Origin: Halanaerobacter jeridensis
GTDB lineage: Bacteria; Bacillota; Halanaerobiia; Halobacteroidales; Halobacteroidaceae
Assembly (NCBI RefSeq): GCF_016908315.1
Contig: NZ_JAFBDQ010000005.1
Location: 1 to 64,000 of the forward strand
DNA: 64,000 bases
Reading direction: 5' to 3'
The notes under the pieces: model-generated
The model's input: only the letters and a program-made list of their open reading frames with translations
What the model was told of the DNA's origin: nothing
Databases searched by the model: none
Made by a program: the position numbers and the translations under genes
In this document: positions 674 to 56,367 of the stretch, piece after piece
Layout of the letters: each line of letters begins with the position of its first letter
Position numbering within the stretch: the first letter of the stretch is position 1

Positions 674-1255
674 TCAAAATTTATTACACAACTCATCTAA
701 CTTATCTCTTAATTCTTTTACCTTTTCTTTACTAACTTCGAAATTAACCTTTTTACTTTCCCCATCATTACAAGCGATATCTAATTCAATTAAAGCTGTA
801 GTAATATTATGTCCTAATTCTTCTTTTTTTATTACTTGATAATTTAATGACCTTAACTTATCATTTAAACACGAAATATGAAATAATAATTTTTGTTTGA
901 ATTCATCAGTCAAAATAATTTCACGTAATTTTTCAATTAAGTATGAATTTAATTCAATAAAATCTTTATCAAAATTCTTTTCTCCTAAAGATTTTTTCTC
1001 TATAAATGCTTCAATAAGTTCAGTTAAAATATGTAACGTATATTTTAAATAAAATTCATTCAAATCATATTCTTCTATATATTCATTATATGAAGTCTCT
1101 GATACTCCTATTCCGTATGACATATAATTTACATCCAATCCTATAATCCCTTTTTTATTCATTTCATCTAAACAATTTACAATTTCATCACACTTTTCTT
1201 TATCTGTTAATAAATTTTCTATTTCTTCTTGTTTTTCAAAATTAATTTCTGACAT
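674..1255 (-). CDS. hypothetical acidic protein (193 aa)
   Basis: ORF-track ORF in which I recognise no family. It lies between attC-like site 1 and the IS110 fragment, so it may be the remnant of a further cassette whose own attC-like site is missing. Confidence 0.45.
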   Translation of the reverse strand: MSEINFEKQEEIENLLTDKEKCDEIVNCLDEMNKKGIIGLDVNYMSYGIGVSETSYNEYIEEYDLNEFYLKYTLHILTELIEAFIEKKSLGEKNFDKDFIELNSYLIEKLREIILTDEFKQKLLFHISCLNDKLRSLNYQVIKKEELGHNITTALIELDIACNDGESKKVNFEVSKEKVKELRDKLDELCNKF

Positions 1256-1500: not shown

Positions 1501-1636
1501 TTCGGATAACGTCCCTGCGATTCGCGACGTCTCGCTACTGCTCCTATACTTTGCCTATTCTCCTAAATTTCATAAGTCAGTGCTTAACCCTGCACTATCC
1601 TCTAGACCTAGATGTCGCTAATCGCATGTTATATGA
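1501..1636 (-). repeat. attC-like cassette recombination site, copy 1
   Basis: Plus-strand 5' arm TTCGGATAAC-GTCCC-TGCGATT-C-GCGACGTCT; 3' arm AGATGTCGC-T-AATCGCA-T-GTTATATGA. The heptads TGCGATT and AATCGCA are perfectly complementary. About 85 nt of pyrimidine-rich loop lies between the arms. Confidence 0.8.
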
Positions 1637-2522
1637 TGGAGCGACCCGGAACCACAAAGATAAAATTCTGCTTTTGCTATTATCTTAGCTAAAAATCATT
1701 TCTTACGCATCACAAAGCAGTTCTATTCCTAGCCCAAAACTATTTACCTGAGGGAAAGGGGGCGAAACTTCTATCTTCCTAATAAGTGAATCTTTTCTCT
1801 CAATTATGTAATTCTTGCTAATATGTATAAACCCTTCATAAAATAATCCAATTTTCAAAAAGATAAAAATGGGTTTTCAACTTTCACATTCAAAATGAAA
1901 TTAAGGAGTTAGCTAATACAATTTTGCCATGCTATTCCAAGTTTTTTATCGTCTATCACAATGCTCTTTACTAACAAATTAAAAAGCTCTCCATTTAGCC
2001 TAACTCCTGTCCAGCACCGCACTGGTTTTCCTAACGAAAAGACTAGCCTAATAATTCCTAATCAAGGATAAAGAAAGGTTTTCTTCTGCCCCCTTTCCCT
2101 TTTCCAATTTTCTCTGCAAGATAGAAGTTGACTACATCAATCTAGCCATGCTATACCACAGATTATTTAATAACTCTTATGCTCTTTATTCTGCATTGAA
2201 AATTTATAAGTAGTCACACTTCTATCCTAAGAATAATCCAAATAAATAAACTTGCACAATGATAAAGAGGTTAGGAAATGTTATAAAAATATTGCTGAAG
2301 CTTTTTTTGAATTGAATCTTTTACCTGAGGTTTTAATGAAAGATTTTTAACCCTAATTTGTTTTCTTTTTAAATAAGTAACTAAAAAAGCTCTATTATTT
2401 TCCCTAATTTGCTATTAAAAATCTTAAACCTATAAAAAAATCACTATTTCCTAACCTTCCCTCGAAAATAGTGATCTCTTACTGGTTGGATTCTATAACT
2501 GAAAATCAATATCTTAGCTCTT
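1637..2522 (-). other. ORF-poor cassette (886 bp between attC-like sites 1 and 2)
   Basis: No credible ORF of 60 aa or more. It contains two 12-nt complementarities: GGGAAAGGGGGC at 1752-1763 with GCCCCCTTTCCC at 2088-2099, and AACTTCTATCTT at 1766-1777 with AAGATAGAAGTT at 2118-2129. Confidence 0.5.
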
Positions 2523-2657
2523 TCATATAACGTCCCGCAGCTTCGCGACGTCCCATCAATGCTCTATAACCTAATCTAATGCAACCTTAATTTCATAAGT
2601 CAGTCCTAACCTCATTTATACTCTACAATTGGATGTCGCTAAGCTGCTGTTATGCGA
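2523..2657 (-). repeat. attC-like cassette recombination site, copy 2
   Basis: TCATATAAC-GTCCC-GCAGCTT-C-GCGACGTCC ... GGATGTCGC-T-AAGCTGC-T-GTTATGCGA. The heptads are complementary. The terminal pair has covaried (..GTCC/GGAT.. here versus ..GTCT/AGAT.. in the other copies). The 5' flank complements GTTATATGA of copy 1. Confidence 0.8.
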
Positions 2658-2679
2658 AGTGCTAAATCTCAGATAACAA

Positions 2680-4140
2680 CTATATATCACTTGAAAAATA
2701 ATTATCAATGATTTTCCGTAATTTCTTTACTCCCTTCTCTTTGGCTTTATTTCGAATTTCTTCTTTGGAAAAATAATTTATTTGATATTTATTAGTGCTT
2801 TGAGCGCGTTCTTTCAAATAATCTTCTGCTTCTTTTTCAAAACCACCAGTAGACCATAACTCAAAAATGAGCTCTTTATTTCTATGTTCATCTTCTTGAA
2901 AAGTCCAACTTCTTATTTTAGGAATATTATCTGTCACCCATTTTTTAGCAAACCCCTTTCCTATTGGGGCTTTCTTTCCCTTGCATTCAACAATCCTTAA
3001 TCTATCGGGATTATCATAAGCAAGAACATCAATTTCTCTTCTTTCCCCACTATCTTTATCAAGAACTACCTCATTGATTTTAATATATATAGATGATTGA
3101 GAATAATAATATCCTACAGCCAATTCAAAAAGTGCTCCTCTTAAATTAATAGACGCTCCTCTTAAATCAGATAATTTATCAAATAAATCAAAATATTTAT
3201 CAGGATTTTTACTAATAACTGCAGAAGCATTTTCGATTACATTTACTAATGACTTCAATACTTCAGTATATTGGTTATCAAATAATTCATTAACAAATCC
3301 AATAAATATTCCTCGAGATTTAAGCAACTGAAAAGCTTCCTTCTCTAAATCTTCTACTATAATAATAGGGATAAAAGAAGAAACATTATGATTCTGTTTG
3401 ATAATATCAATTTTATTTAAAAAATATTCAACATGCTCTTCTAATACTTCTTTTCCCAGTAAAATATCTGCCACAATAAATCCTGGTGAATCTTCATTTC
3501 TTAAATTAAGAATATAAGATGGAGCTGTAAAACCCCACTGAAATTTATAAAATTCCGCATTATTAGATAACTTTTCTGCATCATTATAAGAAGTGAAATT
3601 TATTTTTTTCGCCCAATCTTCAAAATTAGAAATAGTTAGTTCTTTTGCTAACTCAATTGCTTTAAATCTGGTATGAGTTGAACTAACTTCTATTAATGAA
3701 TTCAACTGATATATATCATCAGTATATTCAACTAAAACATCTAATTGTAGCAAATCATCAATAATAGAGCTAGCCGGTTTATGTCCTTTTAACTTTTTAA
3801 TCGGAGAACAAGTATAACTAGGTAATTGATTCATATCTATAAATCCATCATGAAATAATACTGCTTGTATAAAAAAATGATACGCTTTAGCATGAGTTTC
3901 AAAACTGTTTACTAAATTTTGATAAAAAAGTTGAGTCTTAAAATGATCACTTAAATAAATAAATTGTTGGTTATTATTAAAAGAAATAGTCTTCATTTTT
4001 TTCACAGGAGAATTTGCCCGGGAAATAGCTTTTCTAGCTGCATCATTAGTTATTTCATGTTTTTCTTCTAATTTTTTAGCTAATACTCCGGAAACCATTG
4101 GACCATCATCTTGAAGAATCTTTTCTATACGTGTTGTCAT
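2680..4140 (-). CDS. wHTH-like N-terminus plus Mrr/PD-(D/E)xK-like nuclease C-terminus (486 aa), single-gene cassette
   Basis: The C-terminal pattern GALFELAVGYYY...REIDVLAYD...LRIVECKGKK resembles the Mrr-type restriction endonuclease core. The N-terminus MTTRIEKILQDDGPMVSGVLAKKLEE... looks like a winged helix. It is the only ORF between sites 2 and 3. Confidence 0.55.
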   Translation of the reverse strand: MTTRIEKILQDDGPMVSGVLAKKLEEKHEITNDAARKAISRANSPVKKMKTISFNNNQQFIYLSDHFKTQLFYQNLVNSFETHAKAYHFFIQAVLFHDGFIDMNQLPSYTCSPIKKLKGHKPASSIIDDLLQLDVLVEYTDDIYQLNSLIEVSSTHTRFKAIELAKELTISNFEDWAKKINFTSYNDAEKLSNNAEFYKFQWGFTAPSYILNLRNEDSPGFIVADILLGKEVLEEHVEYFLNKIDIIKQNHNVSSFIPIIIVEDLEKEAFQLLKSRGIFIGFVNELFDNQYTEVLKSLVNVIENASAVISKNPDKYFDLFDKLSDLRGASINLRGALFELAVGYYYSQSSIYIKINEVVLDKDSGERREIDVLAYDNPDRLRIVECKGKKAPIGKGFAKKWVTDNIPKIRSWTFQEDEHRNKELIFELWSTGGFEKEAEDYLKERAQSTNKYQINYFSKEEIRNKAKEKGVKKLRKIIDNYFSSDI

Positions 4141-4316
4141 TTTATGTCACACCTCACTATTTATAAATAAACAATCAATCAAGCGATCAATTAATTTTTT
4201 TAGTTTTTCAATACCGACAATTCAATAGTTCATAGAGCTGGAAAAAAATACAATGTCACACTTTCCTTTTCAAACTAAAAAATTGTCACTAAAATATGTA
4301 ACTAAGATTTAGCATT

Positions 4317-4453
4317 TCGCATAACGTCCCTGGGCTTCGCGACGTCTAGGCACTGCTCCTATACTTTTGCCTATGCTCCTAAATTTCATAAGTCAGTGCT
4401 GCAACCCTGCCATATCCTCTGTGCCTAGATGTCGCTAAGCCCATGTTATCTGA
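4317..4453 (-). repeat. attC-like cassette recombination site, copy 3
   Basis: TCGCATAAC-GTCCC-TGGGCTT-C-GCGACGTCT-AGGCAC ... GTGCCT-AGATGTCGC-T-AAGCCCA-T-GTTATCTGA. An extra 6-bp stem (AGGCAC/GTGCCT) is present. The flank TAGCATTTCGCATAAC complements GTTATGCGAAGTGCTA of copy 2. Confidence 0.8.
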
Positions 4454-4489
4454 CGTAGCCATTGTCGAATAAAAACTACTGTACTTACA

Positions 4490-6280
4490 TCAAAAATTTT
4501 GGTTATAATTAAGATTAGGTAAGGCAATTAAACAACTTGCTTTTTTATGATATCCATAGCGATTAAGCCCCATATTAGCAAATAAAAACACATCCTTCTT
4601 GGCTCTGGTAATCCCAACATAAAAAATGCTAAGCACTTCTTCAAATTCTTCTCTTAAAGAAGACAAAAACTGGAATTTACAACATTTATCAAACTCTTCC
4701 TTCCCTTGTTTAGCACTACACAACTTGCAAAGTCCTTTTGAAGTAGGAAATGAGTATGCTGTAACTCTAGGAATGTATACATAATCCCATTCTAATCCTT
4801 TGGCACCATGTATTGTAGTTATTGTTATCCTTTCATCAATTTCATTCATTAAATGCTTTAAAGATTCATTTTCTAACACAAAAGAAATCTTTTCAAACTT
4901 TTTATTTTTTGATATATTTTCTGCTTTAGTTTTTTGAAACAATTTTTTTAATAACCTTAACAAGGAATTATATATATACATTGTATCATCTTCATATATA
5001 TCTTCAGTAAGCAATTCCTCCATTCTATCAACAACTCTACTTAGTACACGTTTTGCAATAGATTGATTGATACCACTTTCTTCCAAAAACACATCTAAAG
5101 CTTTCTCATGAAAAGCTACATATTCTCTGTCAGTATCATTGAATAATCCATTAAAATAGGAAATAGATTGTTCTTCTAATTTTTCAATTACCTCATTAGT
5201 ACAATAACTAGCTCGACACAAAATAGATACATCATCAGAATCACTAATCTTATCTTTAATATGTTCTACAATAAACTCGGCTTCTTTATGATTGCTCTTA
5301 AAAAATTTAAAATTCATTTCAGCTTCTTTATCAAAAGAATCCATCTCACTATAATTTAAAAAGATACTACGAATATAACTGTCTAATTTTTTCATCTTTT
5401 CATTATCATCAAATCTATGATTTGTTTTGAATCTCATTTCTTCCATATTAAATTCCTCAGCCATATGGTCAAACAAATCAGGAATAGCTCCAATAAAGCC
5501 ATAAATTTTCTGAATTTTATCTCCCATTAAAATAATTTCGTTTTCTCCCATTAATTTTGTAAGCAATCTATATGATAAATAATTAGTATCTTGAAATTCA
5601 TCAACAATAATCATTTTATAATATTGCTGATAAAAATTTCTAATTGATTTCTTATTTAATAAATAATAGGAAAAAAGCAATAATCCATTAAATGTAATAA
5701 CTTCATTAGGGATTAATATTTCGTTTAAAATCTCAAAATAATTGCTTTCTAACTTTTCAACATTATCAATATTTTCTTTTTCAAACCCATTAAAATTTTT
5801 AATACATTTGTCATACTCTGATAAAATGTCCATTTCCGAAGATGATAGATAATCCTTTAGCACTGCTGAATAATCGGATACTATTCTAAAAGAATCCATA
5901 GCCCCCAAATTTTTATTTAATAAATATCCATGTTTTTTTAACAAAATTCTTGCTAAATTATGATAATTTGCTACATCAAGTTTCTTGGATAAATCAACAT
6001 TTTCATCATCTAATAATTCAGGTAATAATTCATTAGTATCTTTTTTAATTTTATTAGCTGCATTTACGCTAAATGTAAGGGCTAATATTTTTTTATGATG
6101 TATTGTCGGATCTGTAACTATTTTGTAAGCAATTTTACTAATCATTGTTTTGGTTTTCCCATATCCAGCTGGAGCAGTTACAATTATTCTTTGTTTTTGA
6201 CTGAAAATAAAATCAAGTTGCTCTTCATCTTTTCCATGAATATCCTCAATTGATTTAGAAATAGCTTTTTTATTCTTCAT
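4490..6280 (-). CDS. gajB: UvrD/PcrA-like SF1 helicase, Gabija GajB-like (596 aa)
   Basis: Walker A VTAPAGYGKTKT, motif II IIVDEFQDTN, TIHGAKGLEWDYVYIP and YVGITRAKKDVFLF. It overlaps the upstream OLD-family gene by 11 nt. Confidence 0.8.
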   Translation of the reverse strand: MKNKKAISKSIEDIHGKDEEQLDFIFSQKQRIIVTAPAGYGKTKTMISKIAYKIVTDPTIHHKKILALTFSVNAANKIKKDTNELLPELLDDENVDLSKKLDVANYHNLARILLKKHGYLLNKNLGAMDSFRIVSDYSAVLKDYLSSSEMDILSEYDKCIKNFNGFEKENIDNVEKLESNYFEILNEILIPNEVITFNGLLLFSYYLLNKKSIRNFYQQYYKMIIVDEFQDTNYLSYRLLTKLMGENEIILMGDKIQKIYGFIGAIPDLFDHMAEEFNMEEMRFKTNHRFDDNEKMKKLDSYIRSIFLNYSEMDSFDKEAEMNFKFFKSNHKEAEFIVEHIKDKISDSDDVSILCRASYCTNEVIEKLEEQSISYFNGLFNDTDREYVAFHEKALDVFLEESGINQSIAKRVLSRVVDRMEELLTEDIYEDDTMYIYNSLLRLLKKLFQKTKAENISKNKKFEKISFVLENESLKHLMNEIDERITITTIHGAKGLEWDYVYIPRVTAYSFPTSKGLCKLCSAKQGKEEFDKCCKFQFLSSLREEFEEVLSIFYVGITRAKKDVFLFANMGLNRYGYHKKASCLIALPNLNYNQNF

Positions 6281-7997
6281 TATCTTCTACTCCATTCATT
6301 AATTCTTCTATAATATCTTTAAAAACTTCAGGCACATTAGTAACATATTTTGCTAAAAGAGAACCATTTAAAGCATTTTTTTTATTCCTTAATTGTTTTA
6401 TTTCTTCTTCTTGATAATTTAGCATAATTCTATTTTTAACTTCCTCAGGAACCTCATATTCTTCAGGAGCTTCTATAAAAAGTCTGGGACTAAATTCTTC
6501 CATCTCCTTTTTTAAATAATTTATAAAAGGAGTAATTTTATCTGCTTCCTTTTGATAAAGCAAATAATCATTAAAATCAAAACTATTATATATTTCTGCT
6601 TCAAAATCTATTTCATTTGTGAAAAATATTCCATCTTCATTTTTATATTTTTCTTCTTGATCTTTATCAATTATAGCTATAGCTCTAATATCATATGCAT
6701 CATAAAGTTTCATACATCTAAGAACACTACCAGCCCCATCAAGTTTTATAATTCCAATACTTTCTTCATCAATATCATATCCTATTCTTTCAATAAGTAC
6801 TGGTAAAGCTCCGAATTCTGTATCACCTTCTACAAGAACTACAGCTTTACTAAACATAGCTTCTTTAATATACATAAAACTTCTTATTAAGTGTTTATGA
6901 GTTTTATCATTAAAATCTATATTTCTACCACACTTTACATTAACTTTATCATTAACCTTATATAATCTAGTAATTTGTTTATAGTTATTTAATAATATAT
7001 TAGGAGAATGTGTAACAACAAACACTTGTCCAATCAAACCATCTATTTCAAATAATTCTTCGAGAAGTTTGATAAAGTCTTCATTCTTATTATCAATAAT
7101 TCTTTTTATACCTTTAATTAATGCTCTTTGTCTATATGGATGTTGGTGTATTTCAGGTTCATCTAAAGCAATTACAATTGGTAAATATCTATTTCCCTCA
7201 TCATCATTAATTAAAATATTATTAAATTTTTCTTCTTTCTTATTAGTTTTTAATTTTATTAACAAATCTAAAATATATAAAAATATATTAAATGAATATT
7301 GTAAGCCATCACCAAGTTCATTTAAACTTTTACCTGTATTGTCTCCTACCTCTAAAATTCGACTAACAATATTCTGCTCATCATCATCCACAAATGCTTC
7401 AATTACTTCTCCTTTTAACCCATTTATTTTATATATTTTTTTATTTAAATCATCAACAATTTCATTAACATCACTAATATTAATTAAATCTAAATTTTCT
7501 ATATCTCTTTCCTCCAAAATGTTTTCAACTAAGTAATTTAAAACTTTTCCAGTTCCAGTGTTTTTTGAAAAATCTATTTCTTTGCTAGGATTCCTTAATG
7601 ACGAATAATAAATAAAATTGATTTTTTTAATAGTTATTGGATTTATATATGTATCTGCCGGAGATGCATGTTTATATTCAATTCGACTATAAATATCTTC
7701 TTGAGTTGCTATAATAGTTAAACTATATTCATCATCAATATCAAAATTATTTTCAAAAAAACCCAATTCATCTTTATTGTAACTTATAGTGAATTTAACA
7801 GATATCTCCTTCTTTGTATCATCAAAATGTTCTTCATAGAATTTACCCTTACGTAATAAACAATTAAGCAACTCCATTACATTAGTTTTACCAACATTAT
7901 TTTCTCCAACTAAAAAATTAATTTCCTCATCAAATTTAAAATTTAGTCCGCTTAAATTCTTGAAATTTTTTACTTCTTTTATTTCACTTACAAACAT
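6270..7997 (-). CDS. gajA: OLD-family ATPase-TOPRIM nuclease, Gabija GajA-like (575 aa)
   Basis: N-terminal ABC-like ATPase (FLVGENNVGKTNVMELL; LDEPEIHQHP) and a C-terminal TOPRIM (AVVLVEGDTEFGALPVL; IAIIDKD). It is immediately followed by the UvrD-like gene, which is the class-2 OLD/Gabija arrangement. Confidence 0.8.
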   Translation of the reverse strand: MFVSEIKEVKNFKNLSGLNFKFDEEINFLVGENNVGKTNVMELLNCLLRKGKFYEEHFDDTKKEISVKFTISYNKDELGFFENNFDIDDEYSLTIIATQEDIYSRIEYKHASPADTYINPITIKKINFIYYSSLRNPSKEIDFSKNTGTGKVLNYLVENILEERDIENLDLINISDVNEIVDDLNKKIYKINGLKGEVIEAFVDDDEQNIVSRILEVGDNTGKSLNELGDGLQYSFNIFLYILDLLIKLKTNKKEEKFNNILINDDEGNRYLPIVIALDEPEIHQHPYRQRALIKGIKRIIDNKNEDFIKLLEELFEIDGLIGQVFVVTHSPNILLNNYKQITRLYKVNDKVNVKCGRNIDFNDKTHKHLIRSFMYIKEAMFSKAVVLVEGDTEFGALPVLIERIGYDIDEESIGIIKLDGAGSVLRCMKLYDAYDIRAIAIIDKDQEEKYKNEDGIFFTNEIDFEAEIYNSFDFNDYLLYQKEADKITPFINYLKKEMEEFSPRLFIEAPEEYEVPEEVKNRIMLNYQEEEIKQLRNKKNALNGSLLAKYVTNVPEVFKDIIEELMNGVEDNEE

Positions 7998-8128
7998 TTT
8001 TTTTGCCCCCGTTTCAATTTAAGTAATTAATCTTCTAATTTAAATAAAATTAGTTCATCGATTAAAATCAAGAAAAATTATATTTGATCTTAATCTCTTT
8101 GGATAACCTCTTTTTCAAAATGGCTATG

Positions 8129-8263
8129 TCAGATAACGTCCCTGGGGTTCGCGACGTCTCGGGACTGCTCCTCTATTCTGCTCATCATCCTAAATTTCAT
8201 AAGTCAGTGCTACAACCCTGCCCTATCCTCTTACCTAGATGTCGCTAAGCTCATGTTATGTGA
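8129..8263 (-). repeat. attC-like cassette recombination site, copy 4
   Basis: TCAGATAAC-GTCCC-TGGGGTT-C-GCGACGTCT ... AGATGTCGC-T-AAGCTCA-T-GTTATGTGA. The heptads pair with one G:T and one mismatch. The flank AATGGCTATGTCAGATAAC complements GTTATCTGACGTAGCCATT of copy 3. Confidence 0.8.
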
Positions 8264-8749
8264 TGTAGTTAGCAAAAGATATTTTCTATATTCTCCAAAA
8301 CCTATGCAAACACTTCTAAACTATGCTAAACCTATTCTACTCACCTTTGCTAATGAGACTTTTCTTTCACAATCCTTCCCAAACAGCTCTAATTAGAGTT
8401 CTCTTACAACTATAATTCTATAACTTTAAAAAAAGAATAAACCGAAAGAGATAGAGTAGATATCCTTCCCTAAAATGGTTTCTAAATGTGTTTTTAACTT
8501 CACTATACTCAAAAATTTGCCTCTAAACCTGAGCATTTTCGCCGAAAAATTATACCAACGCCCAAAATATAGCCTAGGCATCGCTACTGGACTAACTTCA
8601 AACAAATATACTTCCACATAACTTATATAAGCCTTAACTCTATATTTCTTTTCCTTAATATAAAAAAGCATCTACTCTATCTCTTGACCGGTTATAGAAT
8701 TCTGCAGCATTTTCTATTCTAATACAAACAAACCCATTTGCTAACTATG

Positions 8750-8886
8750 TCACATAACGTCCCTGGGCTTCGCGACGTCTCGGGACTGCTCCTATACTTT
8801 TGCTTATCCTCATAAATTTCATAAGTCAGTGCTGCAACCCTGCCCTATCCTCTATACCTAGATGTCGCTAAGCCCATGTTATCCGA
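8750..8886 (-). repeat. attC-like cassette recombination site, copy 5
   Basis: TCACATAAC-GTCCC-TGGGCTT-C-GCGACGTCT ... AGATGTCGC-T-AAGCCCA-T-GTTATCCGA. The flank TTTGCTAACTATGTCACATAAC complements GTTATGTGATGTAGTTAGCAAA of copy 4. Confidence 0.8.
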
Positions 8887-8923
8887 CGCCCGGCTTCTAT
8901 AAAAAATATATCCCTCTTTTAAC

Positions 8924-9781
8924 CTAGTAACTTTTTAATATATCTAAATATTCACTTTTTGTTTCATTATCATATAAACCCTTCGCTTCATTTAGAGTTT
9001 CTATAGCCCAGTCTACATATTTTTGATTTACTTTTTTACTATTTTCTATTTTTTCTATAAATCTTTCTATTTTATTTCTCAATTTATTGTTTACTGATTT
9101 TAATTTTTCTTCCAATTGTTCATTCTCTTCTGCTAGTTCTTCATTCTCTTCTGCTAGTTCTTCATTCTCTTGCTCTAATTGTTCTTCAATTTCTTTTAAC
9201 ATTTCTAATCTTTGTTTTAACCGTTGTGTTTCCTTCTTTTCTTGTTGTGTTTCCTTCTTTTCTTGTTGTGTTTCCTTCTTTTCTTGTTGTGTTTCCTTCT
9301 TTTCTTGTTGTAATTTCTTATCAGACTGCTCAACTGCCTCATCTAATGCACTTAACTCTTCATCACTCCATTCAGTACTTTCCTTACTACTCTCACCTTC
9401 ATTTAATATTTCTTTTATTTTGCTTTTAACCCAACTAGGAGCTTCTATAAAATCTTTTCTCAATCTTTTATTCTCTGATTTCAACAACTCTTTATAAGCT
9501 AAATCTAAATTAGAAAGATTATCTTTAGTCAATATATCTATTTCAATTAAATTTTCTGCGAATTCTCCTGGTTTCATAAATTTATCTTCTAATTTGCTTA
9601 TTTCTTCTAATTCGTCATATAATTTAGTTTTAGCCTTATTAGTACTTAATTCAGCTTGTTTTAGTTTCTCTTCTGTTAAACCATAATCCTCATTTAACTT
9701 AGTAGTTACATCATCTGCTAAAACATTCACTGTCAAAACCAATAGCAATACAATCAATAATAAAACACTTAACTTCTTCAT
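8924..9781 (-). CDS. secreted coiled-coil protein with tandem heptapeptide repeats (285 aa)
   Basis: N-terminal signal-like segment MKKLSVLLLIVLLLVLTVNVLA. It carries a QQEKKET x4 repeat and an ELAEENE repeat, is strongly charged and looks helical. It is the sole ORF of the cassette between sites 5 and 6. Confidence 0.6.
   Translation of the reverse strand: MKKLSVLLLIVLLLVLTVNVLADDVTTKLNEDYGLTEEKLKQAELSTNKAKTKLYDELEEISKLEDKFMKPGEFAENLIEIDILTKDNLSNLDLAYKELLKSENKRLRKDFIEAPSWVKSKIKEILNEGESSKESTEWSDEELSALDEAVEQSDKKLQQEKKETQQEKKETQQEKKETQQEKKETQRLKQRLEMLKEIEEQLEQENEELAEENEELAEENEQLEEKLKSVNNKLRNKIERFIEKIENSKKVNQKYVDWAIETLNEAKGLYDNETKSEYLDILKSY
9224..9307 (-). repeat. 4 x 21-bp perfect tandem repeat inside the coiled-coil gene
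   Basis: The unit ttgtgtttccttcttttcttg is repeated four times on the plus strand and encodes QQEKKET x4. A second 21-bp unit (ttcattctcttctgctagttc) is repeated just over twice at about 9121-9170. Confidence 0.85.
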
Positions 9782-9860
9782 AATCTGCCTCCCCTAAATT
9801 ATGGTTTTTAATGTTTTTAATATGTATTTCTTTCAATAAAAATAGCAGCTAAGCCGGGTT

Positions 9861-9994
9861 TCGGATAACGTCCCTAGGGTTCGCGACGTCTAGCTAAACC
9901 CTCCTATAACTTGTCCATCCTCTAAAACTCAATATTCAATTCCTAACCTTCCCTAACCTCTCAACCTAGATGTCGCTAACCCTATGTTAGACGA
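9861..9994 (-). repeat. attC-like cassette recombination site, copy 6 (divergent loop subfamily)
   Basis: TCGGATAAC-GTCCC-TAGGGTT-C-GCGACGTCT ... AGATGTCGC-T-AACCCTA-T-GTTAGACGA. The heptads are complementary. The loop differs from copies 1-5. The flank AAGCCGGGTTTCGGATAAC complements GTTATCCGACGCCCGGCTT of copy 5. Confidence 0.8.
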
Positions 9995-10014
9995 TGTTTG
10001 CTTGATAAAAATCA

Positions 10015-11046
10015 TTACCTTCTCTCTATTTCTTCAATTATTAATTTTGGGAATTTATATTCAATTACAGCAATAGCTTCTTTTAAAAGCGGATAAGAAA
10101 AATCTCCTTTTGAACTAGTAATCATTGACATCCAATGAGTTGGATAATATCGAACTAACATACCAATCGCATATGAAATAATGTAAATAGTTAATAAAGA
10201 AGAAAAATTTAAATTATCAGCTAAAGGGGCAACAGCAAATATATTATTTTTTCTATCATTTTTTACAAACGGAACTCTATTATAAAACTCTTCATTAGAA
10301 GAATGAATTATTCTAAAAGATATATTTTCTAAATTACCTGCAAAATTATGTTTTTCCTTCTTTCTCGTTTTAATGTCTTTTGGTAAACCAAAGTCATCTC
10401 TAACTAATTCCTTATTAGGTAACCCAATACTAGTTTCTAACACTGCAATATCTGTTTGTTCAGATAAACAAAAAACAATTGCATTATAACATTTAGAATA
10501 ATCATCAAAAGTATTCTCATATATATTTTGTAATTCCGGAATCCTCGCTAATATTTCTTTAATAGTAATTAAATTATTACTATCTTCTTTACCCCCATAT
10601 TGTTTTATTTTAGTTCGATTTGGATATGGAGCTATATATATTGAACTTCTCTCAATATTTTCTGTAACCTCCCATAACTTAGAAAATGTGCCAGAAGTAA
10701 TCTCAACATTCAAATTAGGTACTTCTTCTATTCCATCTGAAAGTTTTTGGGTCCAATTTTTCACTCTTAATCCATGAGATGGTTTAAGGCTAGTTACTCT
10801 TGCAAAAGGATCTAAAAATAAAATTAATCCACGACAAAATGCAACTACTCCGTAATAAAACAATAGAGGAGATACAACATTATCAGCCTGTTTTGCACTG
10901 GAAAAATATTCTCTTCCTTGAGTAATATGAGAAACTATTTCCTCTGCTTTTCCAGCCGAAAGTTCTCTATCATGCTTCTCTTCATAAAATTTTGAAACTA
11001 AATCTTTGCTTTCATACAAAGATATCTTAGACCAAACATTTTTCAT
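10015..11046 (-). CDS. YaaC-like protein (343 aa), second gene of a two-gene cassette
   Basis: The N-terminal region ...EIVSHITQGREYFSSAKQADNVVSPLLFYYGVVAFCRGLILFLDP... resembles my recollection of the B. subtilis YaaC family. The family assignment was not verified by any search. Confidence 0.45.
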   Translation of the reverse strand: MKNVWSKISLYESKDLVSKFYEEKHDRELSAGKAEEIVSHITQGREYFSSAKQADNVVSPLLFYYGVVAFCRGLILFLDPFARVTSLKPSHGLRVKNWTQKLSDGIEEVPNLNVEITSGTFSKLWEVTENIERSSIYIAPYPNRTKIKQYGGKEDSNNLITIKEILARIPELQNIYENTFDDYSKCYNAIVFCLSEQTDIAVLETSIGLPNKELVRDDFGLPKDIKTRKKEKHNFAGNLENISFRIIHSSNEEFYNRVPFVKNDRKNNIFAVAPLADNLNFSSLLTIYIISYAIGMLVRYYPTHWMSMITSSKGDFSYPLLKEAIAVIEYKFPKLIIEEIERR

Positions 11047-11069
11047 TATTTACCTCCCTTTTTCCCTTG

Positions 11070-11528
11070 TCACAAATTTACTTTTTCTAACTGTGTAGGC
11101 CAAGCTCCTTGACCATTTCCTCCTTTAAAATAAACTCTATAATTTTTTCCTATAGAAGAAACAACATGTTTAGTAATATACTTCTTTTCTTCACCATCAA
11201 TTTCAACTTTACTTTTCTTTTTAACTTTGTCTCCAGGCTTTAAATTTAATTCTTCAATTGCTTGCTTATTATTTTCTTTTAATTTATCCTCAATTTTTGC
11301 TGAGGCAACTCTCAACGAATTGTTTTTAAGATCTAAACCCAATTCTTCTCCAAATTCAATTTGTTTTTCAGTAGACTCATTAAATTCCATATTAGGATCA
11401 ATTGCTGGTTCAACTGCATCATAAATCCTTGCACTTGCTACATTACGAGTATCATTAGAAATATCAACTTCTAATTTAATTGCTATATTCTTTTGAAATG
11501 GTGTTGGTTTTTTATGAACATCATTCAC
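11070..11528 (-). CDS. hypothetical protein with an internal duplicated ~32-aa motif (152 aa), first gene of the two-gene cassette
   Basis: The two repeats are TPFQKNIAIKLEVDISNDTRNVASARIYDAV and STEKQIEFGEELGLDLKNNSLRVASAKIEDKL. The lysine-rich C-terminal segment ends in ...YRVYFKGGNGQGAWPTQLEKV. It lies 23 nt upstream of the YaaC-like gene. Confidence 0.5.
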   Translation of the reverse strand: MNDVHKKPTPFQKNIAIKLEVDISNDTRNVASARIYDAVEPAIDPNMEFNESTEKQIEFGEELGLDLKNNSLRVASAKIEDKLKENNKQAIEELNLKPGDKVKKKSKVEIDGEEKKYITKHVVSSIGKNYRVYFKGGNGQGAWPTQLEKVNL

Positions 11529-11573
11529 AAATAAATTTCCTCCTTTAAAAAATATAATATAACAAAAGCAAAT

Positions 11574-11709
11574 GTCGTCTAACGTCCCTGGGGTTCGCGA
11601 CGTCTAGCTCAACCCTCTTATAACTTGTCCTTCCTATAAAACTTTCATATGTAATCTCTACCTTCACCCATCCTCCTAGCCTAGATGTCGCTAACCCCAT
11701 GTTATGTGA
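11574..11709 (-). repeat. attC-like cassette recombination site, copy 7 (divergent loop subfamily)
   Basis: TCGTCTAAC-GTCCC-TGGGGTT-C-GCGACGTCT ... AGATGTCGC-T-AACCCCA-T-GTTATGTGA. Its CTAAC core matches the GTTAG of copy 6 rather than its own GTTAT. Confidence 0.8.
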
Positions 11710-12760: not shown

Positions 12761-13801
12761 TTAGTTGATTAAATTATCTAACGGACTTTCTATGTTTGCA
12801 ATATCTCTTTTGCTGACATGAGTATATATTTCAGTAGTAGTAGAACTCTTATGTCCTAATAATTTTTGGATGTATCGTAAATCAGTTCCTTGCTCTAATA
12901 AATGTGTTGCAAAAGAATGTCTTAAAGTATGTACAGAAACATCTTTAGTAATATTAGCTTTTCTACAGGCTTTTTTGAATATTCTTTGTACTGATCTTGT
13001 AGTTAAGTGTTCTCCTTCTTTGCCTCCAGGAAACAACCTCTTTTCGGGTTGATATAATTGATGATACATTTTTATCTGTTTCAGACAAGATTCTGATAAG
13101 ATCGTATAGCGATCTTTTCTCCCCTTCCCTTGATTAATTTTAATTAGCATTCTATCACTATTAATATCATCCATTTTTAGTTTAACAACTTCACTAACCC
13201 TTAATCCAGCAGAATAAACTACATACAAAATTGTTTTATGTTTGGGGTTATCTAGACTATCTAAAATCTTCGCTACTTCTTTTTTACTTAATACTTCCGG
13301 TAACTTTTTTTCTTTTTGTGGTCGTGATAAAACAACTGAAATATCTTTATTATCCAATACTTCCCGGGCCAAGAACTTAATAGCACTAATCCCCTGGTTA
13401 ACAAATGAATGTGATAAATCTTGGTCTAATAAATCCAACAAATAATCCTTAATCTCAGCATCAGTCACTCGTGATAACTTCTTATTAATAAATCGTGCAA
13501 ACTGCCTAATATGACTCATATAAACTTTTTCCGTCTTTTCACTATAACCTTCTAAATTTAACTGATTTTTTAGTTCATTAATTACTAGTTCATTTTCTAA
13601 AGCACTGGAAATTATAATTCTTTCATTAACAAATTTCTCTTTTAACTGTTCTAAAATATCATAATCATAAGGTACTAACCATGCTCTAGCTTTAGGGGCC
13701 CATTCCCGCTTATTAATTTCTTTAATTTTTTTAATTTTTCTTTCCGAATAATCAAATTTAACAGCTAGTTGTCCTTCTAACTTTTCAATTCTTAATGTCA
13801 T
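12761..13801 (-). CDS. tyrosine recombinase (Xer/integrase family, 346 aa) with a ~70-aa N-terminal extension; candidate cassette integrase
   Basis: Catalytic motifs are present: AGLRVSEV, HTLRHSFATHLL and LLGHKSSTTTEIYTHV. Only about 55 aa separate GKGRKDRYTIL from HTLRHSF, so the ~100-aa spacing I recall for IntI1 and VchIntIA is absent. The N-terminus is MTLRIEKLEGQLAVKFDYSERKIKKIKEINKREWAPKARAWLVPYDY... Confidence 0.85.
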   Translation of the reverse strand: MTLRIEKLEGQLAVKFDYSERKIKKIKEINKREWAPKARAWLVPYDYDILEQLKEKFVNERIIISSALENELVINELKNQLNLEGYSEKTEKVYMSHIRQFARFINKKLSRVTDAEIKDYLLDLLDQDLSHSFVNQGISAIKFLAREVLDNKDISVVLSRPQKEKKLPEVLSKKEVAKILDSLDNPKHKTILYVVYSAGLRVSEVVKLKMDDINSDRMLIKINQGKGRKDRYTILSESCLKQIKMYHQLYQPEKRLFPGGKEGEHLTTRSVQRIFKKACRKANITKDVSVHTLRHSFATHLLEQGTDLRYIQKLLGHKSSTTTEIYTHVSKRDIANIESPLDNLIN

Positions 13802-29732: not shown

Positions 29733-29925
29733 CAATGACCTACTTGAAGGGCAAGCCCGTTCAGGTTTCTTCATTCATTGAAACGAGCCTAATCTAAACC
29801 TACCGAAATGGTAAGACAAATCAGGTCTTACAGTTTCTAGACCAGCCAAAAGACTGGTTGAGGCAACTTACAATGCCTCCAGAAGCTTGAATTCCCGTCA
29901 GCCCGACGGTATGTATTATATTTTA
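29733..29925 (-). ncRNA. predicted TnpB omega/right-end RNA scaffold (orphan copy)
   Basis: Near-identity to the segment between the tnpB stop and the right end of the full IS. This is by analogy to the known origin of TnpB guide RNAs in the IS right end. Expression was not assessed. Confidence 0.45.
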
Positions 29926-44813: not shown

Positions 44814-45047
44814 CAATGACCTACCTGAAGGGCAAGCCCGTTCAGGTTTCTTCATTCATTGAAACGAGCCTAATCTGAACCTACCGTAAATGGCAAGACA
44901 AATCAGGTCTTACAGTTTCTAGACCAGCCAAAAGACTGGTTGAGGCAACTTACAACGCCTCCAGAAGCTTGATTTCCCGTCAGCCCGACGGTAAATATGT
45001 TTTTTATGAGCTTCACGAAAAGTCCGTTAGGACTTGTAGGATGTGGA
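44814..45047 (-). ncRNA. predicted TnpB omega/right-end RNA region
   Basis: A structured, comparatively GC-rich 234 bp lies between the tnpB stop and the IS right terminus, and is conserved in the orphan copy. By analogy to characterised TnpB systems the guide would be read from the flank beginning at 44813. The boundaries are not determined. Confidence 0.45.
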
Positions 45048-52228: not shown

Positions 52229-53416
52229 TTAATTTTCACCATCAGCCAACCATCTCTCTCCTGTTAACTTAATACCTAATGCTCCTAGAGGTGAAGTTAC
52301 TACAATCGATAAGACTGCTAATGCTAAAATTAATTCCCCCGACTCAACTCCTGCAGCTAACGGTACTGCCCCTACAGCAGCCTGTACTGTTGCTTTAGGT
52401 AGATAAGCGATCACACAAAATAATCTCTCTTTCCACTCTAAATTAGTATTAATTAATGAAATTAAAACCCCAATCGATCTAGCTAAAAGACCAACCGCAA
52501 TAATTACTAGCCCGACTAAGCCTGATTGTAAAGCCACCTCAATATTAACCTCAGCACCAATTAACACAAATAATAATAATTCAGCAAACACCCAGATTTT
52601 ATTAAACTTAGCCGCTAACCTCTGCCCTACTTCCTTATATTTTTCCATAATTACAAAACCAATTGTCATTACTCCCAATAAACTAGCAATTGATATAATT
52701 CCTTCGAGCGCTTCTTTAGATACATCCAGAAATATAGCCACACTTAAAATCAACAATACCTTTTTAGTATCACGCATATGATACTTTTTAAACAAATAAA
52801 TCAAGAATAAAGCTACCACAACTCCAATTGCTACTCCTAGGATAATTGAAATCGGAATATTTAAAAGTTTCCAAGTTAAATTAACACTCTGTCCCCCATA
52901 AAATCCTAGAAAAGTAGAAAATAGAGTAATTGCGACTATATCATCGATTGATGCTCCCGCTAAAACTAAAGTTGGAATCCCCTTAGCTGCTCCTTTACCC
53001 CGATCAATCAAATTTAACATTTGAGGAACTATTACAGCAGGAGATACAGCAGCAATAATAAAAGCTAAAATTCCTGCTTCAATTAACGAGATATCTAATA
53101 AATAATTAGCCACAAACAAAATCGTAAAACCTTCCATTAGCCCCGGAATAAAACTCATCTTAACTGCAGGAACTCCTATTTTCTTTAGCGTTTCTTTCTT
53201 TAAGCCTAGTCCGGCTCGAATTAAAATAATAATCAAGGCTATTTTTCTTAAATCCGGCGAAACCTGCAGTAATTCTTGACTCATTACATCAAAACCATAC
53301 GGACCAATTGCTACTCCCAAAATCAACATTCCTAATAACCCTGGTAAACTAACATGGTCAAAAGCCTTATTAAGTATTAGACCAAACAAAATTATAATTG
53401 CTAAACTTAACGCCAT
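52229..53416 (-). CDS. cation:proton antiporter (Na+/H+ exchanger family, 395 aa)
   Basis: A polytopic membrane protein (about 10-12 predicted helices by eye) with the glycine-rich and charged loop patterns typical of CPA-type antiporters. Confidence 0.7.
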   Translation of the reverse strand: MALSLAIIILFGLILNKAFDHVSLPGLLGMLILGVAIGPYGFDVMSQELLQVSPDLRKIALIIILIRAGLGLKKETLKKIGVPAVKMSFIPGLMEGFTILFVANYLLDISLIEAGILAFIIAAVSPAVIVPQMLNLIDRGKGAAKGIPTLVLAGASIDDIVAITLFSTFLGFYGGQSVNLTWKLLNIPISIILGVAIGVVVALFLIYLFKKYHMRDTKKVLLILSVAIFLDVSKEALEGIISIASLLGVMTIGFVIMEKYKEVGQRLAAKFNKIWVFAELLLFVLIGAEVNIEVALQSGLVGLVIIAVGLLARSIGVLISLINTNLEWKERLFCVIAYLPKATVQAAVGAVPLAAGVESGELILALAVLSIVVTSPLGALGIKLTGERWLADGEN

Positions 53417-53662: not shown

Positions 53663-53714
53663 AAAAAGACCCCTACTCGCTGAGAAGATAAAGTAATCCC
53701 CAAGCAAGTAGGAG
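53663..53714 (-). terminator. intrinsic terminator after LysM paralogue 1
   Basis: On the minus strand, CCTACTTGCTTGGGGATTACTTTATCTTCTCAGCGAGTAGGGG is followed by TCTTTTTT. Confidence 0.6.
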
Positions 53715-53835
53715 CCATCAATTGCTATATTTAGCAATAGTTAAAGGCGAGCTCCATCGCCTACCATTTAATTTTAGCAGATTAATTATAAGATTGCAAT
53801 CAAAATTTGTAGACTAATTATTTTACTGCCTTTTT

Positions 53836-54990
53836 TCACCTTTTACATTTCCCCAACATACCATCTAACAAAGGATTAGTTCGTACCCCAGTATCTCTAG
53901 AATACGGCATGACAGATATTCTAGTTCCCGGCACAGCAAATGGATCTTCAGGAATAACTTTTGTTCCACTCCAGGTTGATTGCTCCCCAGAAAAAGTTGA
54001 TTCTTCTAAAATAATAGAATAACTCCGCCCTTCGCCAGTACCAATGCCAATTCCCACTCCAGCTACATAAGAATCAAACTGCCCATCAAATATTGATTCT
54101 GGAGCCGGCAAACCAGTAGCACCAACAGTCAGAGCATAGCTGTTTTCTGCTAATTTCTGCACTAAAACAACACCACCTCGTCGAGCAGGCACAGGTCTCA
54201 AATATTCAGGTGCAGTCAGTATCACAACACATTTTTCCGGTACGATTGCTTCTGTAGGTATACATATCTTTTCTCCCACAGAAATTTGGTTAGGATTTTC
54301 TATTTGAGGATTAGCAGCAATTAAATTATCTACCGTAATTCCATATCTTTGGGCTATTTCATATAAAGTATCTCCTGCTTGGACAGTATAAGTTTTCCCT
54401 ACACAATCAGTTGTTTGATCGGCTGAATACTGATTTTCTACTAACACAAAAGAGCCCGGCACAAAAGCAACTGAATCATAAGGCACAATTCCTACTATTT
54501 TTGTATTAGACAAATTTATTCCACCTAAAGCCAAACTCCAGGTTGGTTCTTGATTTCCCACAGCAGTCTGCTTTAATTCAGAGTAAAAAGTTCCTCCGCG
54601 TTCTCGACTAAAAAATCTAGTCATGACTGCATAGGAATCAAAATCAAGCTGAGATTCTAGCAATTCTGGTTCCGGCAGCCCAGCAGCAAAAACAGTCACA
54701 TCATAACTATCTTCTGTTAGCTGCTGTAGTAAAATCACTCCTCCAGCTCGGTTTGAAACTGAAGGATATTCAGTATTTTGAGGTCGAGTTAGTACTGTTG
54801 ACCATTTTTCACTTCCCTCAATTTCTTCAATTGGAATACAGATTACCTGACCAACAAAAATAAAATTAGGATTTTCTATCTGCGGGTTAGCAGCCAGTAA
54901 ATCATCTACTGCAACTTCATATTTCTGAGCTATCTTGTTTAAAGTATCGCCCGGCTGCACAGTATATCTAGTCCCTGGACAATCATTCAT
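53836..54990 (-). CDS. double [LysM + ~130-150-aa unknown domain] protein, paralogue 1
   Basis: The LysM repeats are YTVQPGDTLNKIAQKYEVAVDDLLAANPQIENPNFIFVGQVICIP and YTVQAGDTLYEIAQRYGITVDNLIAANPQIENPNQISVGEKICIP. The likely start is the ATG at 54990 (MNDCPG) after AGCAGGA; the ORF-track start is 55044. Confidence 0.75.
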   Translation of the reverse strand: MNDCPGTRYTVQPGDTLNKIAQKYEVAVDDLLAANPQIENPNFIFVGQVICIPIEEIEGSEKWSTVLTRPQNTEYPSVSNRAGGVILLQQLTEDSYDVTVFAAGLPEPELLESQLDFDSYAVMTRFFSRERGGTFYSELKQTAVGNQEPTWSLALGGINLSNTKIVGIVPYDSVAFVPGSFVLVENQYSADQTTDCVGKTYTVQAGDTLYEIAQRYGITVDNLIAANPQIENPNQISVGEKICIPTEAIVPEKCVVILTAPEYLRPVPARRGGVVLVQKLAENSYALTVGATGLPAPESIFDGQFDSYVAGVGIGIGTGEGRSYSIILEESTFSGEQSTWSGTKVIPEDPFAVPGTRISVMPYSRDTGVRTNPLLDGMLGKCKR

Positions 54991-55179
54991 ATAATTCCTG
55001 CTTATAATATAAAATCCTATGCATAATGCATAGACCACAATCATACAAGATTAGATTGTGTTAGCTATAATCCTATGCACAGTTTTTCTTATAAGCAGGA
55101 TTTTCACCACCTTTCTTTTTGTTTGAATTAAAATTTTTACTAAAAGTCAATTTATCTAACCTTTAATCAGGTCATAATC

Positions 55180-56367
55180 CTAAAATTCCTCCGCTATCTT
55201 GCCAGATAATAAAATTTCTGCTCCTGATATCTCATCCGGTTGATAATATGGTCTAATATTGACCTCCGCTCCCTGCACACTATATGGCAATTCCGGAGGT
55301 AAAATTACTGTTCCTGCCCAGATTGAACCCTGGACTGGAGTAACAACTCGTTCTAAAACAGCATAATAAGAAAGCTGCTGTTCAAACCCAAGTTGAATAT
55401 TGATCGTAGCTAAATAGCTATCATACTCTAACTCATCACCTATAACCTCAGGCACAGGCGGTATCCCCACTGCACCAAATGTTACAACATATCCTCTGTC
55501 AGGTGTATATTGAGCTAAAACTACTCCCCCAGTCCAAGGTGGAACAGGCTTAAAATAATCTGAAGCAGTCATTACTGCCGTATATTTTCTCGGTATAGAA
55601 GCTTCCGGCGGCAGCACAATCGTTTGACCTACAAAAATTTGGCTTGGATCTCCTATATCAGGATTTACAGCTAGTAATTGGTCCAAAGTCAAATTATATT
55701 TTTCTGCTACTTTACTTAAAGTATCTCCGGCTTGAATTCGATAAGTTGTTCCATATTCAGAATAATCTTCCTCAATTAAAATATTTCCTTCTGATGTTCG
55801 ACCAGTGGTCTGATGTAAAGCAAAAACCCTGATCAAATATTCCTCCGGATCTATCGTACCTAAAGTTCCTGACCAAACTGGTTGCAGAGAACCACCAGCT
55901 GTTCGGGTAGTTTTTTTCAAAACTTTAGTATATCTATAGTTTCCAATTTCCGGAGGAGAATCATATTCATTCATCCTAGTTACTAAAGTCACATAAGAAT
56001 CAAAATTTCCTAACTCTTCTAAACTAGGCAGCCCTGTAGCAAATATGACTGCCTCATAAGCATCATCATCTATCTGCTGTAACAACATTGTTCCGCCTAA
56101 ATCATAGGGGATAGGAAGATTATTTTCTTCAAGAGTAGGCAACATTGGCGGCAGCAGTAATACCGCTTCTTTTATAAACTCATCACCCCCATTGGCAGTA
56201 GGAATACAGAGTTTCTGCCCTACATCAATCTGACTAGAACCTCCCAACTGTGGATTAGCTGCATACAAACTTTCTAGGGTAATTCCATATCTTTGAGCAA
56301 TTTTATATAATGTATCTCCTGCTCTCACAAGTATAACTTCTCCTTTACACTTTCTGCCGTCACTCAT
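55180..56367 (-). CDS. double [LysM + unknown domain] protein, paralogue 2
   Basis: Same architecture as paralogue 1 and the shared motifs GG.(L/V)L.Q, A.G(L/I)P, (F/Y)DSY and W(S/A)GT. The likely start is the ATG at 56367, after AGAGGTGA. Confidence 0.75.
   Translation of the reverse strand: MSDGRKCKGEVILVRAGDTLYKIAQRYGITLESLYAANPQLGGSSQIDVGQKLCIPTANGGDEFIKEAVLLLPPMLPTLEENNLPIPYDLGGTMLLQQIDDDAYEAVIFATGLPSLEELGNFDSYVTLVTRMNEYDSPPEIGNYRYTKVLKKTTRTAGGSLQPVWSGTLGTIDPEEYLIRVFALHQTTGRTSEGNILIEEDYSEYGTTYRIQAGDTLSKVAEKYNLTLDQLLAVNPDIGDPSQIFVGQTIVLPPEASIPRKYTAVMTASDYFKPVPPWTGGVVLAQYTPDRGYVVTFGAVGIPPVPEVIGDELEYDSYLATINIQLGFEQQLSYYAVLERVVTPVQGSIWAGTVILPPELPYSVQGAEVNIRPYYQPDEISGAEILLSGKIAEEF

Follow-up and report, generated by a model that had tools for sequence, protein, structure and literature searches.

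A mobile protein with paired winged helices and tandem restriction-endonuclease folds as a candidate single-gene defence nuclease

X, the name used here for a 486-amino-acid (aa) protein, is encoded on the minus strand at positions 2680–4140 of a 64,000-nucleotide (nt) stretch of DNA from Halanaerobacter jeridensis (NCBI RefSeq assembly GCF_016908315.1, contig NZ_JAFBDQ010000005.1, positions 1 to 64,000 of the forward strand; hereafter, the window). Our analysis suggests that X is probably an autonomous nuclease that targets DNA, spreads horizontally and, as a module of one gene, defends against incoming phage or plasmid DNA, and the contexts in which the gene is found make it a good candidate for a new bacterial immunity gene. 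The parts of X are of known kinds. What is new is the combination of two winged helices with one degenerate and one active nuclease fold, together with a one-sided link to the Gabija defence system.

The gene is the sole open reading frame (ORF) of at least 60 aa between the second and third of the attC-like recombination sites in the window, just as the initial annotation had stated, and the motifs quoted there (GALFELAVGYYY, REIDVLAYD and IVECKGKK) all occur in its translation. The start codon is ATG, with a GAGGTG Shine–Dalgarno sequence at 4150–4155, nine bases 5′ of it, and the product matches a hypothetical protein recorded at NCBI for H. jeridensis with 100% identity. A word-indexed search returned 131 full-length homologues, and an exhaustive HMMER scan, which covered 1.84 billion representatives, assigned to the family 652 clusters at 50% identity with E ≤ 1e-3 (268 with E ≤ 1e-30), nearly all of them with members of 470–530 aa that match end to end. 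X thus belongs to a real, conserved gene family that has no name. Its homologues are annotated only as ‘hypothetical’ or ‘NERD domain-containing’, and the family is not described in PADLOC 2.0 (2023), Pfam, NCBIfam or the searched literature, newer defence-system catalogues being outside the scope of the search. A PDB sequence search with the window protein gave no match, the PADLOC 2.0 models for Shedu and other single-gene nuclease defences did not match X, and the literature yielded no description of the X architecture or of its E. coli accessions. One variant (P0150) has the N-terminal 330 aa of the X type fused to a different 300-aa C-terminus without a Pfam match, and this fusion may be an assembly artefact.

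The AlphaFold2 model of full-length X, computed from a 49-sequence alignment, has a predicted local distance difference test score of 92.5 and a predicted template modelling score of 0.88. It divides the chain into two N-terminal winged helices, a long helix, two alpha/beta domains separated by a helical linker, and two final helices, as follows.

2680..4140, minus strand: coding sequence of X (winged helix, winged helix, putative pseudo-nuclease, nuclease), from the ORF list; 486 aa, ATG start
3952..4140, minus strand: predicted winged helix 1, aa 1–63; recognition helix aa 32–41 with invariant R36 and R41
3703..3933, minus strand: predicted winged-helix-like domain 2, aa 70–146; conserved G99, P113 and H120
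aa 156–179: long helix (model)
3271..3603, minus strand: predicted middle restriction-endonuclease-fold domain, alpha/beta, aa ~180–290; no canonical D...(D/E)xK motif
aa 289–325: helical linker (model)
2770..3153, minus strand: predicted catalytic PD-(D/E)xK domain, alpha/beta, aa 330–457; E339, D371, E385-C386-K387 and W401
after aa 457: two final helices (model)

The invariance of R36 and R41 in the recognition helix of winged helix 1 extends across phyla. Domain 2 is modelled with helices at residues 70–83, 85–96 and 123–132 and with strands at 100–102, 136–140 and 143–146. A winged-helix-like N-terminus had been foreseen by the initial annotation, and the model in fact contains two. The roughly 300 residues ahead of the C-terminal nuclease, which that annotation had found to match nothing, turn out to hold the second winged helix and a second, non-canonical restriction-endonuclease-fold domain.

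The C-terminal domain has both the alpha-beta-beta-beta-alpha-beta core and the catalytic residues of the PD-(D/E)xK superfamily. Residues E339, D371 and E385-C386-K387 are invariant in the 49 sequences; in a wider set of sequences at 23–48% identity to X, plasmid homologues included, D371 still never varies, and at least 90% of the sequences retain E339, E385 and K387. The middle domain has its own pattern of conservation, with D225 and K243 invariant and P207 and Y209 near-invariant. Taken from the model, X is predicted to hold two restriction-endonuclease folds in tandem, and the check set beforehand for the proposal, a nuclease fold in the predicted structure, came out in its favour. Compared by HHalign, the two domains give only a weak hint of internal duplication (E 0.007, probability 5.5%), although they do align from helix alpha2 onward in the order predicted from the fold. 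A CARF-like sensor was also considered for the middle domain, prompted by matches to Can2 and Card1, and was rejected: a separate model of aa 150–330 matches nuclease domains, not CARF.

By sequence comparison, the C-terminal nuclease is nearest to NERD and AF1548 and is best described as a divergent related family. NERD (Pfam PF08378) is the nearest Pfam family, scoring 16.6 bits (E 0.012) on the window protein, below the cut-off of 22.1, and 26.0 bits on the small-plasmid homologue from E. coli; weak NERD matches were obtained for 23 of the 49 homologues. With the family profile, matches to Can2 (E 0.0098) and to AF1548 (E 0.073) extend over the C-terminal catalytic motifs. The earlier assignment of this domain to the PD-(D/E)xK nucleases stands, in fold and in motif, but its description as Mrr-type does not, for the window protein matches neither Mrr_cat nor Mrr_N in Pfam at E ≤ 1 and Mrr_cat was matched in only 6 of the 49 homologues (best E 0.0018). 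In a Foldseek search, the whole chain is collinear with the type IIS enzymes N.BspD6I and FokI, at a low template modelling score (~0.25) and ~10% identity.

Comparison with known enzymes sets X apart at several points. NERD proteins are not described with two winged helices and a second, degenerate nuclease-fold domain, unlike X, and neither they nor the archaeal protein AF1548 (PDB 1Y88) have an established function. Mrr-type type IV enzymes resemble X in combining an N-terminal DNA reader with a C-terminal PD-(D/E)xK cutter and in having no methyltransferase partner, but X has one more winged helix and one more nuclease-fold domain than they do. FokI dimerizes and BspD6I recruits a small subunit, whereas X has a built-in second nuclease-fold domain and, unlike these type IIS enzymes, no cognate methyltransferase. 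DpnI, HhiV4I and related winged-helix fusion endonucleases likewise join a winged helix to a nuclease, stand alone and rarely have a methyltransferase adjoining; such fusions, when no methyltransferase accompanies them, count as type IV enzymes, and DpnI, HhiV4I and their relatives depend on N6-methyladenine (PMC11037411). The resemblance to Can2 and Card1 is confined to the nuclease domain: X has no CARF domain, its middle domain is predicted to have a nuclease fold and not a Rossmann-like one, and, unlike them, it shows no CRISPR association.

X is packaged as a gene cassette of its own. Seven sites of about 125–145 nt in the window match both repeat arms, against a chance expectation of 0–0.1, and form an array that spans positions 1508–11704. 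Sites 2 and 3, with repeat matches at 2529–2652 and 4323–4448, flank the X gene, and a recombinase gene heads the array.

2525..2669, minus strand: attC-like site 2, the X cassette’s own recombination site; R″ GCATAAC at 2649–2655, R′ GTTATAT at 2525–2531
4141..4324, minus strand: 5′ untranslated region of the X cassette; two GTGTGACA boxes (4254–4261 and 4145–4152) and a TATAAATAGTGAGGTG box
4319..4452, minus strand: attC-like site 3, part of the Gabija cassette upstream; 92% identity with site 5
12761..13801, minus strand, co-oriented with the cassettes: tyrosine recombinase, IntI/Xer-like, heading the attC array; Pfam Phage_integrase and Phage_int_SAM_4

Across the aligned sites, the outer boxes ATAAC ... 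GTTAT (coding strand) and the imperfect inner boxes TTAGCGACATC ... GACGTCGCGAA are invariant, and the 5-bp stem segment that lies between them changes in a covarying manner among the sites (GCGAT/ATCGC, GCAGC/GCTGC, GGGCT/AGCCC and AGGGT/ACCCT). Folded as single-stranded DNA, the sites reach z-scores of -2.8 to -5.9 against shuffled controls, the value of -5.9 being that of site 3. Because of these boxes, the covarying stem segment and the single-stranded folding, the sites have attC architecture. The X cassette has the make-up of an integron gene cassette, in which an ORF is followed by an attC site, an imperfect palindrome with R″, L″, L′ and R′ boxes that preserves structure over sequence. 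In the R′ core of site 3, G|TTATGC, the crossover falls between 4325 and 4324 and marks where the X cassette begins on its 5′ side; if recombination is taken to occur at G|TT, the cassette occupies 2531–4324 on the minus strand. The range first proposed for it, 2658–4316, does contain X but corresponds to the stretch between the sites. The two cassette ends are complementary, the first 20 nt (4305–4324) being the near-perfect reverse complement of 2649–2669, at the start of the cassette’s own attC site.

The recombinase at 12761..13801 passes the NCBIfam model NF040815 (‘tyrosine recombinase/integron integrase’; 227.8 against a cut-off of 220). On the integron integrase model TIGR02249 it reaches 218, short of the cut-off of 265, and is matched in two stretches, separated by ~16 aa where the model has ~70 positions, and from this alignment it appears to be without the IntI-specific insertion. 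Because the score lies below the TIGR02249 cut-off and this insertion is apparently missing, we call the array integron-type, short of a proven integron.

Homologous X cassettes, whose proteins are 47–48% identical to X, stand in Dehalobacter (L002), in a Clostridiaceae metagenome-assembled genome (L010) and in Desulfosporosinus (L011), none of them with Gabija adjoining. The cassette ends GTTATGCGAAAGACC ... GGTCCTTCGCATAAC are common to the window, Dehalobacter and the Clostridiaceae genome, those of Desulfosporosinus are a close variant (GTTATGCGAAAGACT ... GGTCCTTCGACAAC), and the Clostridiaceae array has at least five further repeats of ~140 nt. Integrons are said (the statement is ascribed to Cury et al. 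2016) to be rarely reported in the groups to which these four Firmicutes-type genomes belong. In an alignment of the four cassettes, the boxes of the 5′ untranslated region are kept though the proteins are only ~48% identical: the GTGTGACA boxes lie ~107–109 nt apart (at 2460–2476 and 2567–2583 in the Dehalobacter locus), and the TATAAATAGTGAGGTG box precedes the start codon. These boxes are candidates for a promoter and ribosome-binding site; alternatively, the winged helix of X itself could use them as an operator. A generic promoter and terminator scan of the X cassette returned no more than chance would, and an Rfam scan of the cassette region gave no match. Integron cassettes are known to encode phage defence (10.1101/2024.07.02.601719), and those described share the single-cassette packaging of X but encode proteins unrelated to it.

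The cassette upstream of X encodes Gabija, as the initial annotation had recognized, with both components matched by PADLOC.

4490..6280, minus strand: GajB (UvrD-like helicase); PADLOC PDLC00107, 594 bits; Pfam UvrD-helicase and UvrD_C
6270..7997, minus strand: GajA (OLD-family ATPase–TOPRIM nuclease); PADLOC PDLC00085, 525 bits; Pfam AAA_15 and OLD-like_TOPRIM

The order in the window is GajA–GajB–X, the X cassette being separate from that of Gabija, and X itself, which has no PADLOC match, is neither GajA nor GajB. X could be an optional third component of Gabija, cooperating physically or sequentially with GajA and GajB, and this is the main rival to a self-contained defence module, though we consider it unlikely; the order in the window is one point in its favour. 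X might then add a further nuclease activity, making lethal breaks out of nicks left by GajA or out of DNA unwound by GajB, or be a back-up for when phage inhibitors block Gabija, and lone copies of X would use a Gabija encoded elsewhere or work poorly. In the same vein, X would be a sensor-nuclease with winged helices that can join widely differing GajA/GajB pairs, using the GajB helicase or the nicks of GajA or guarding against anti-Gabija proteins of phages, with integron recombination having paired the two cassettes here, a picture that we likewise regard as doubtful.

The adjacency data favour such cooperation. We surveyed 80 X loci from species-representative genomes, in a scan built on 17 closer sequences and with the neighbours clustered, and the only recurrent partners of X were GajA-like and GajB-like proteins, present at 21 of ~78 non-redundant loci. 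After collapsing of related sequences, Gabija adjoins X in 13 of the 57 clusters formed at 90% identity, in 8 of the 35 formed at 70% and in 4 of the 15 formed at 50%, so that 23–27% of X lineages lie directly beside GajA and GajB. Twelve loci have GajA–GajB–X on one strand with gaps of 20–89 nt, and three have X and GajB convergent with gaps of 18–77 nt, making 15 loci with gaps of 18–89 nt; one locus has X–GajA–GajB, one has a gene in between, and four alphaproteobacterial loci have GajA–GajB–X with gaps of ~180 nt. One natural GajA–GajB–X operon is that of Aequorivita capsosiphonis (L044), with a gap of 50 nt. PADLOC confirms that the neighbours are true Gabija, of at least four subfamilies; besides the pair in the window, these are as follows.

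Bacteroidota loci (L013, L016 and L044 scanned): GajA PDLC00099/80, GajB PDLC00146
Locus L043: GajA PDLC00069, GajB PDLC00119
Alphaproteobacteria loci: GajA PDLC04168, GajB PDLC04173

The GajA and GajB of the window are barely detectable by BLAST against those of the other X loci. Together with the three gene orders and the at least seven separate, independent places that Gabija-linked members occupy on a neighbour-joining tree of the X family, this divergence also counts in favour of the accessory role, as does the fact that NERD-type nucleases are often fused to or paired with UvrD-like helicases, as in Nhi. X is recruited beside Gabija far more often than chance would allow.

Seen from the side of Gabija, the picture is different. 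None of 80 sampled metagenomic Gabija loci of the same broad subfamily carries X, ~45 of them with at least 1.8 kb of downstream sequence. By this sample the link is one-sided, and X as a core Gabija gene is rejected. Nor is co-occurrence obligate from the side of X, given that about three quarters of its lineages have no Gabija within three genes. A third component is further opposed by the separate attC cassette of X here and in the three Gabija-free arrays, and by plasmids of 3.3–3.6 kb on which X is the sole cargo. As a separate integron-type cassette and as the only cargo of small plasmids, X works as its own unit. The earlier description of X as ‘stand-alone’ holds for the separate cassette and the lone copies, and needs qualifying for the roughly one quarter of lineages that adjoin Gabija in a recurrent pattern. 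The published ‘GajC’ cannot be X and lends the accessory role no support, being an unrelated MazF-like protein that replaces GajA in ‘type II Gabija’ (PMC13069673). A parallel is tmn, which co-localizes and synergizes with Gabija (10.1101/2022.08.21.504612): like X, it is an independent gene found repeatedly beside Gabija, but it encodes a membrane NTPase unrelated to X.

Plasmids are a second major setting for the family. Full-length X homologues occur in 356 PLSDB plasmid records (Klebsiella 185, Escherichia 85, Salmonella 26), 191 of which are conjugative. Among 5,426 complete E. coli genomes, ~90 carry X, and 96 of 100 places in this species are plasmid-borne. The small plasmids on which an X homologue is the only cargo gene are ColE1-like and mobilizable and come from E. 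coli, Salmonella and Klebsiella; one example is the 3589-bp E. coli plasmid NZ_CP148459.1 (L091), to which about 20 others are similar, and the accession of the 3.6-kb-plasmid homologue is WP_072652832.1. On IncF plasmids, the X homologue (for example WP_109138272.1) lies near the replication, partition and CcdAB region, and a block kept between E. coli and Klebsiella (6518–11042 in L090, 6503–11041 in L092) encodes five proteins: a HEPN nuclease (pEK499_p136), a hypothetical protein of 252 aa, the homologue of X, a DUF4238 protein and a further hypothetical protein, of 96 aa. The first four of these were scanned with PADLOC and gave no match; the block may be a multi-gene defence or maintenance island. 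X homologues are absent from the 50,697 phage genomes of INPHARED, and a pattern scan of IMG/VR found none.

Such abundance on plasmids, many of them conjugative, the IncF location and the absence from phages would also suit a factor for the competition or maintenance of plasmids and other mobile elements, acting either as an exclusion nuclease or as a winged-helix regulator whose nuclease folds mainly bind. The repeated GTGTGACA box upstream of the Firmicutes cassettes, which could be an autoregulatory operator, points the same way. A purely regulatory role is at odds with the E, D and ExK residues, which are as strongly conserved as in active nucleases, and the recurrent Gabija, Lamassu, Hachiman and AbiE neighbours fit anti-phage islands; we judge a maintenance factor improbable, while noting that anti-plasmid and anti-phage functions are compatible.

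Beyond Gabija, the neighbours of X include Lamassu LmuB (3), Hachiman HamB, SoFic (2), AbiEii and several PADLOC candidate (PDC) systems, along with integrases (4), transposases and KilA-N proteins. One locus (L007), which adjoins an AbiE/Fic cluster, is an element resembling phage-inducible chromosomal islands and has an integrase and a D5 primase; at another (L004), X lies between a transposase and a prophage; and at a third (L005), a serine recombinase and a KilA-N protein are near X. The neighbourhoods of homologues had been named in advance as a check on a defence role, and they proved to be integron-type arrays, plasmids and integrase- or prophage-flanked islands, beside defence genes, with no conserved housekeeping synteny and none with repair genes. 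That X is a housekeeping DNA-repair or recombination nuclease (NucS/EndoMS- or resolvase-like) lying in variable regions by accident is highly implausible: some loci do adjoin housekeeping genes, but the family is patchy across phyla, is carried by cassettes and plasmids, and resembles NucS in the generic nuclease fold only.

No methyltransferase recurs around X. Among 149 neighbours that lie within two genes of X, the 25 commonest Pfam families include no methyltransferase, and there is none in the window cassette; one D12 methyltransferase, five genes away from X in L004, stands beside thymidylate synthase and phage tail/baseplate genes. X therefore does not have alongside it the cognate methyltransferase that characterizes type II and type IIS systems.

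Returning to X as a self-contained defence nuclease, we propose that its two N-terminal winged helices would read DNA. Their target would probably be something general, for instance a modified base or a structure of the DNA, as opposed to a variable sequence, because the recognition helix is invariant across phyla, in contrast to the variable sequences read by type II enzymes. The long helix and the helical linker would join the winged helices to the two restriction-endonuclease-fold domains. Cutting would fall to the C-terminal domain, with its complete E...D...ExK metal-dependent active site, and the middle domain, which has lost the canonical motif, would probably act as a pseudo-nuclease partner, through dimer-like packing, regulation, or a second DNA- or ligand-binding site. 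With a single active site beside a pseudo-nuclease, X would be expected to nick DNA unless it dimerizes. Because no methyltransferase accompanies X, we infer that the host would be spared through dependence on modification or structure, or through activation on infection, the precedent for dependence on modification being the type IV winged-helix–nuclease fusions that lack a methyltransferase (PMC11037411). Preferential recruitment of X beside Gabija would presumably reflect additive or synergistic action of the two.

Several points weigh against this proposal. The window protein has no significant family in PADLOC 2.0, NCBIfam or Pfam, and some homologues adjoin housekeeping genes (BacA, proline biosynthesis, AdoHcyase and CPSase). 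Within the array of the window, adjacency to Gabija could be chance, at ~1 in 6 for an array of seven sites. The middle ‘pseudo-nuclease’ may not be inert, given its invariant D225 and K243. Finally, E. coli hosts are typically Dam+ Dcm+; if X is modification-dependent, the Dam and Dcm marks are an unlikely target, because plasmid homologues live in such hosts.

The integron-type array has further contents that bear on neither X nor Gabija. Between attC-like sites 1 and 2, the stretch 1632–2528 has no ORF longer than 51 aa and is apparently an empty or decayed cassette. The cassette between sites 6 and 7 (10015–11528, minus strand) encodes a YaaC-like protein (Pfam PF14175, E 5.7e-39) and an unannotated 152-aa protein, which may form a two-gene module. 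Another cassette (8924–9781, minus strand) encodes a 285-aa protein with a signal-peptide-like N-terminus and coiled-coil character, in which five to six tandem 21-nt repeats (7 aa, QEKKETQ) lie at 9202–9327. Just past the last attC-like site, a 193-aa protein (674–1255, minus strand) matches the Pfam COMM domain (28.1 against 22.4 bits, E 2.2e-6), which is best known from eukaryotic Commander-complex proteins.

Elsewhere in the window, a fluoride riboswitch (53702–53770, minus strand; Rfam RF01734, 48.7 bits) lies upstream of a gene at 52229–53416. Three tandem paralogous ORFs of ~400 aa (53836–57755, minus strand) have common, diverged internal repeats of 126–221 nt (families D1 and D2). A sequence of ~190 nt occurs at 29733–29923 and at 44814–45005, 15 kb apart, with 93–96% identity between the copies and no Rfam or tRNA match.

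The X family is large, spans many phyla and is common on clinically relevant plasmids of Klebsiella, E. coli and Salmonella, and the homologues on E. coli plasmids make the function of X easy to test experimentally. Shared among the attC arrays of four Firmicutes-type genomes, the X cassette marks a gene that moves in integron style. Its recurrent, one-sided adjacency to divergent Gabija systems offers a concrete, testable case of defence modules being recruited to one another; if X were instead an accessory of Gabija, it would add a previously unrecognized layer to one of the commonest bacterial defence systems. If X is a defence nuclease, it would represent a new single-gene immunity family with a built-in pair of active and degenerate nuclease folds, and would be a likely barrier to phage therapy or plasmid transfer.

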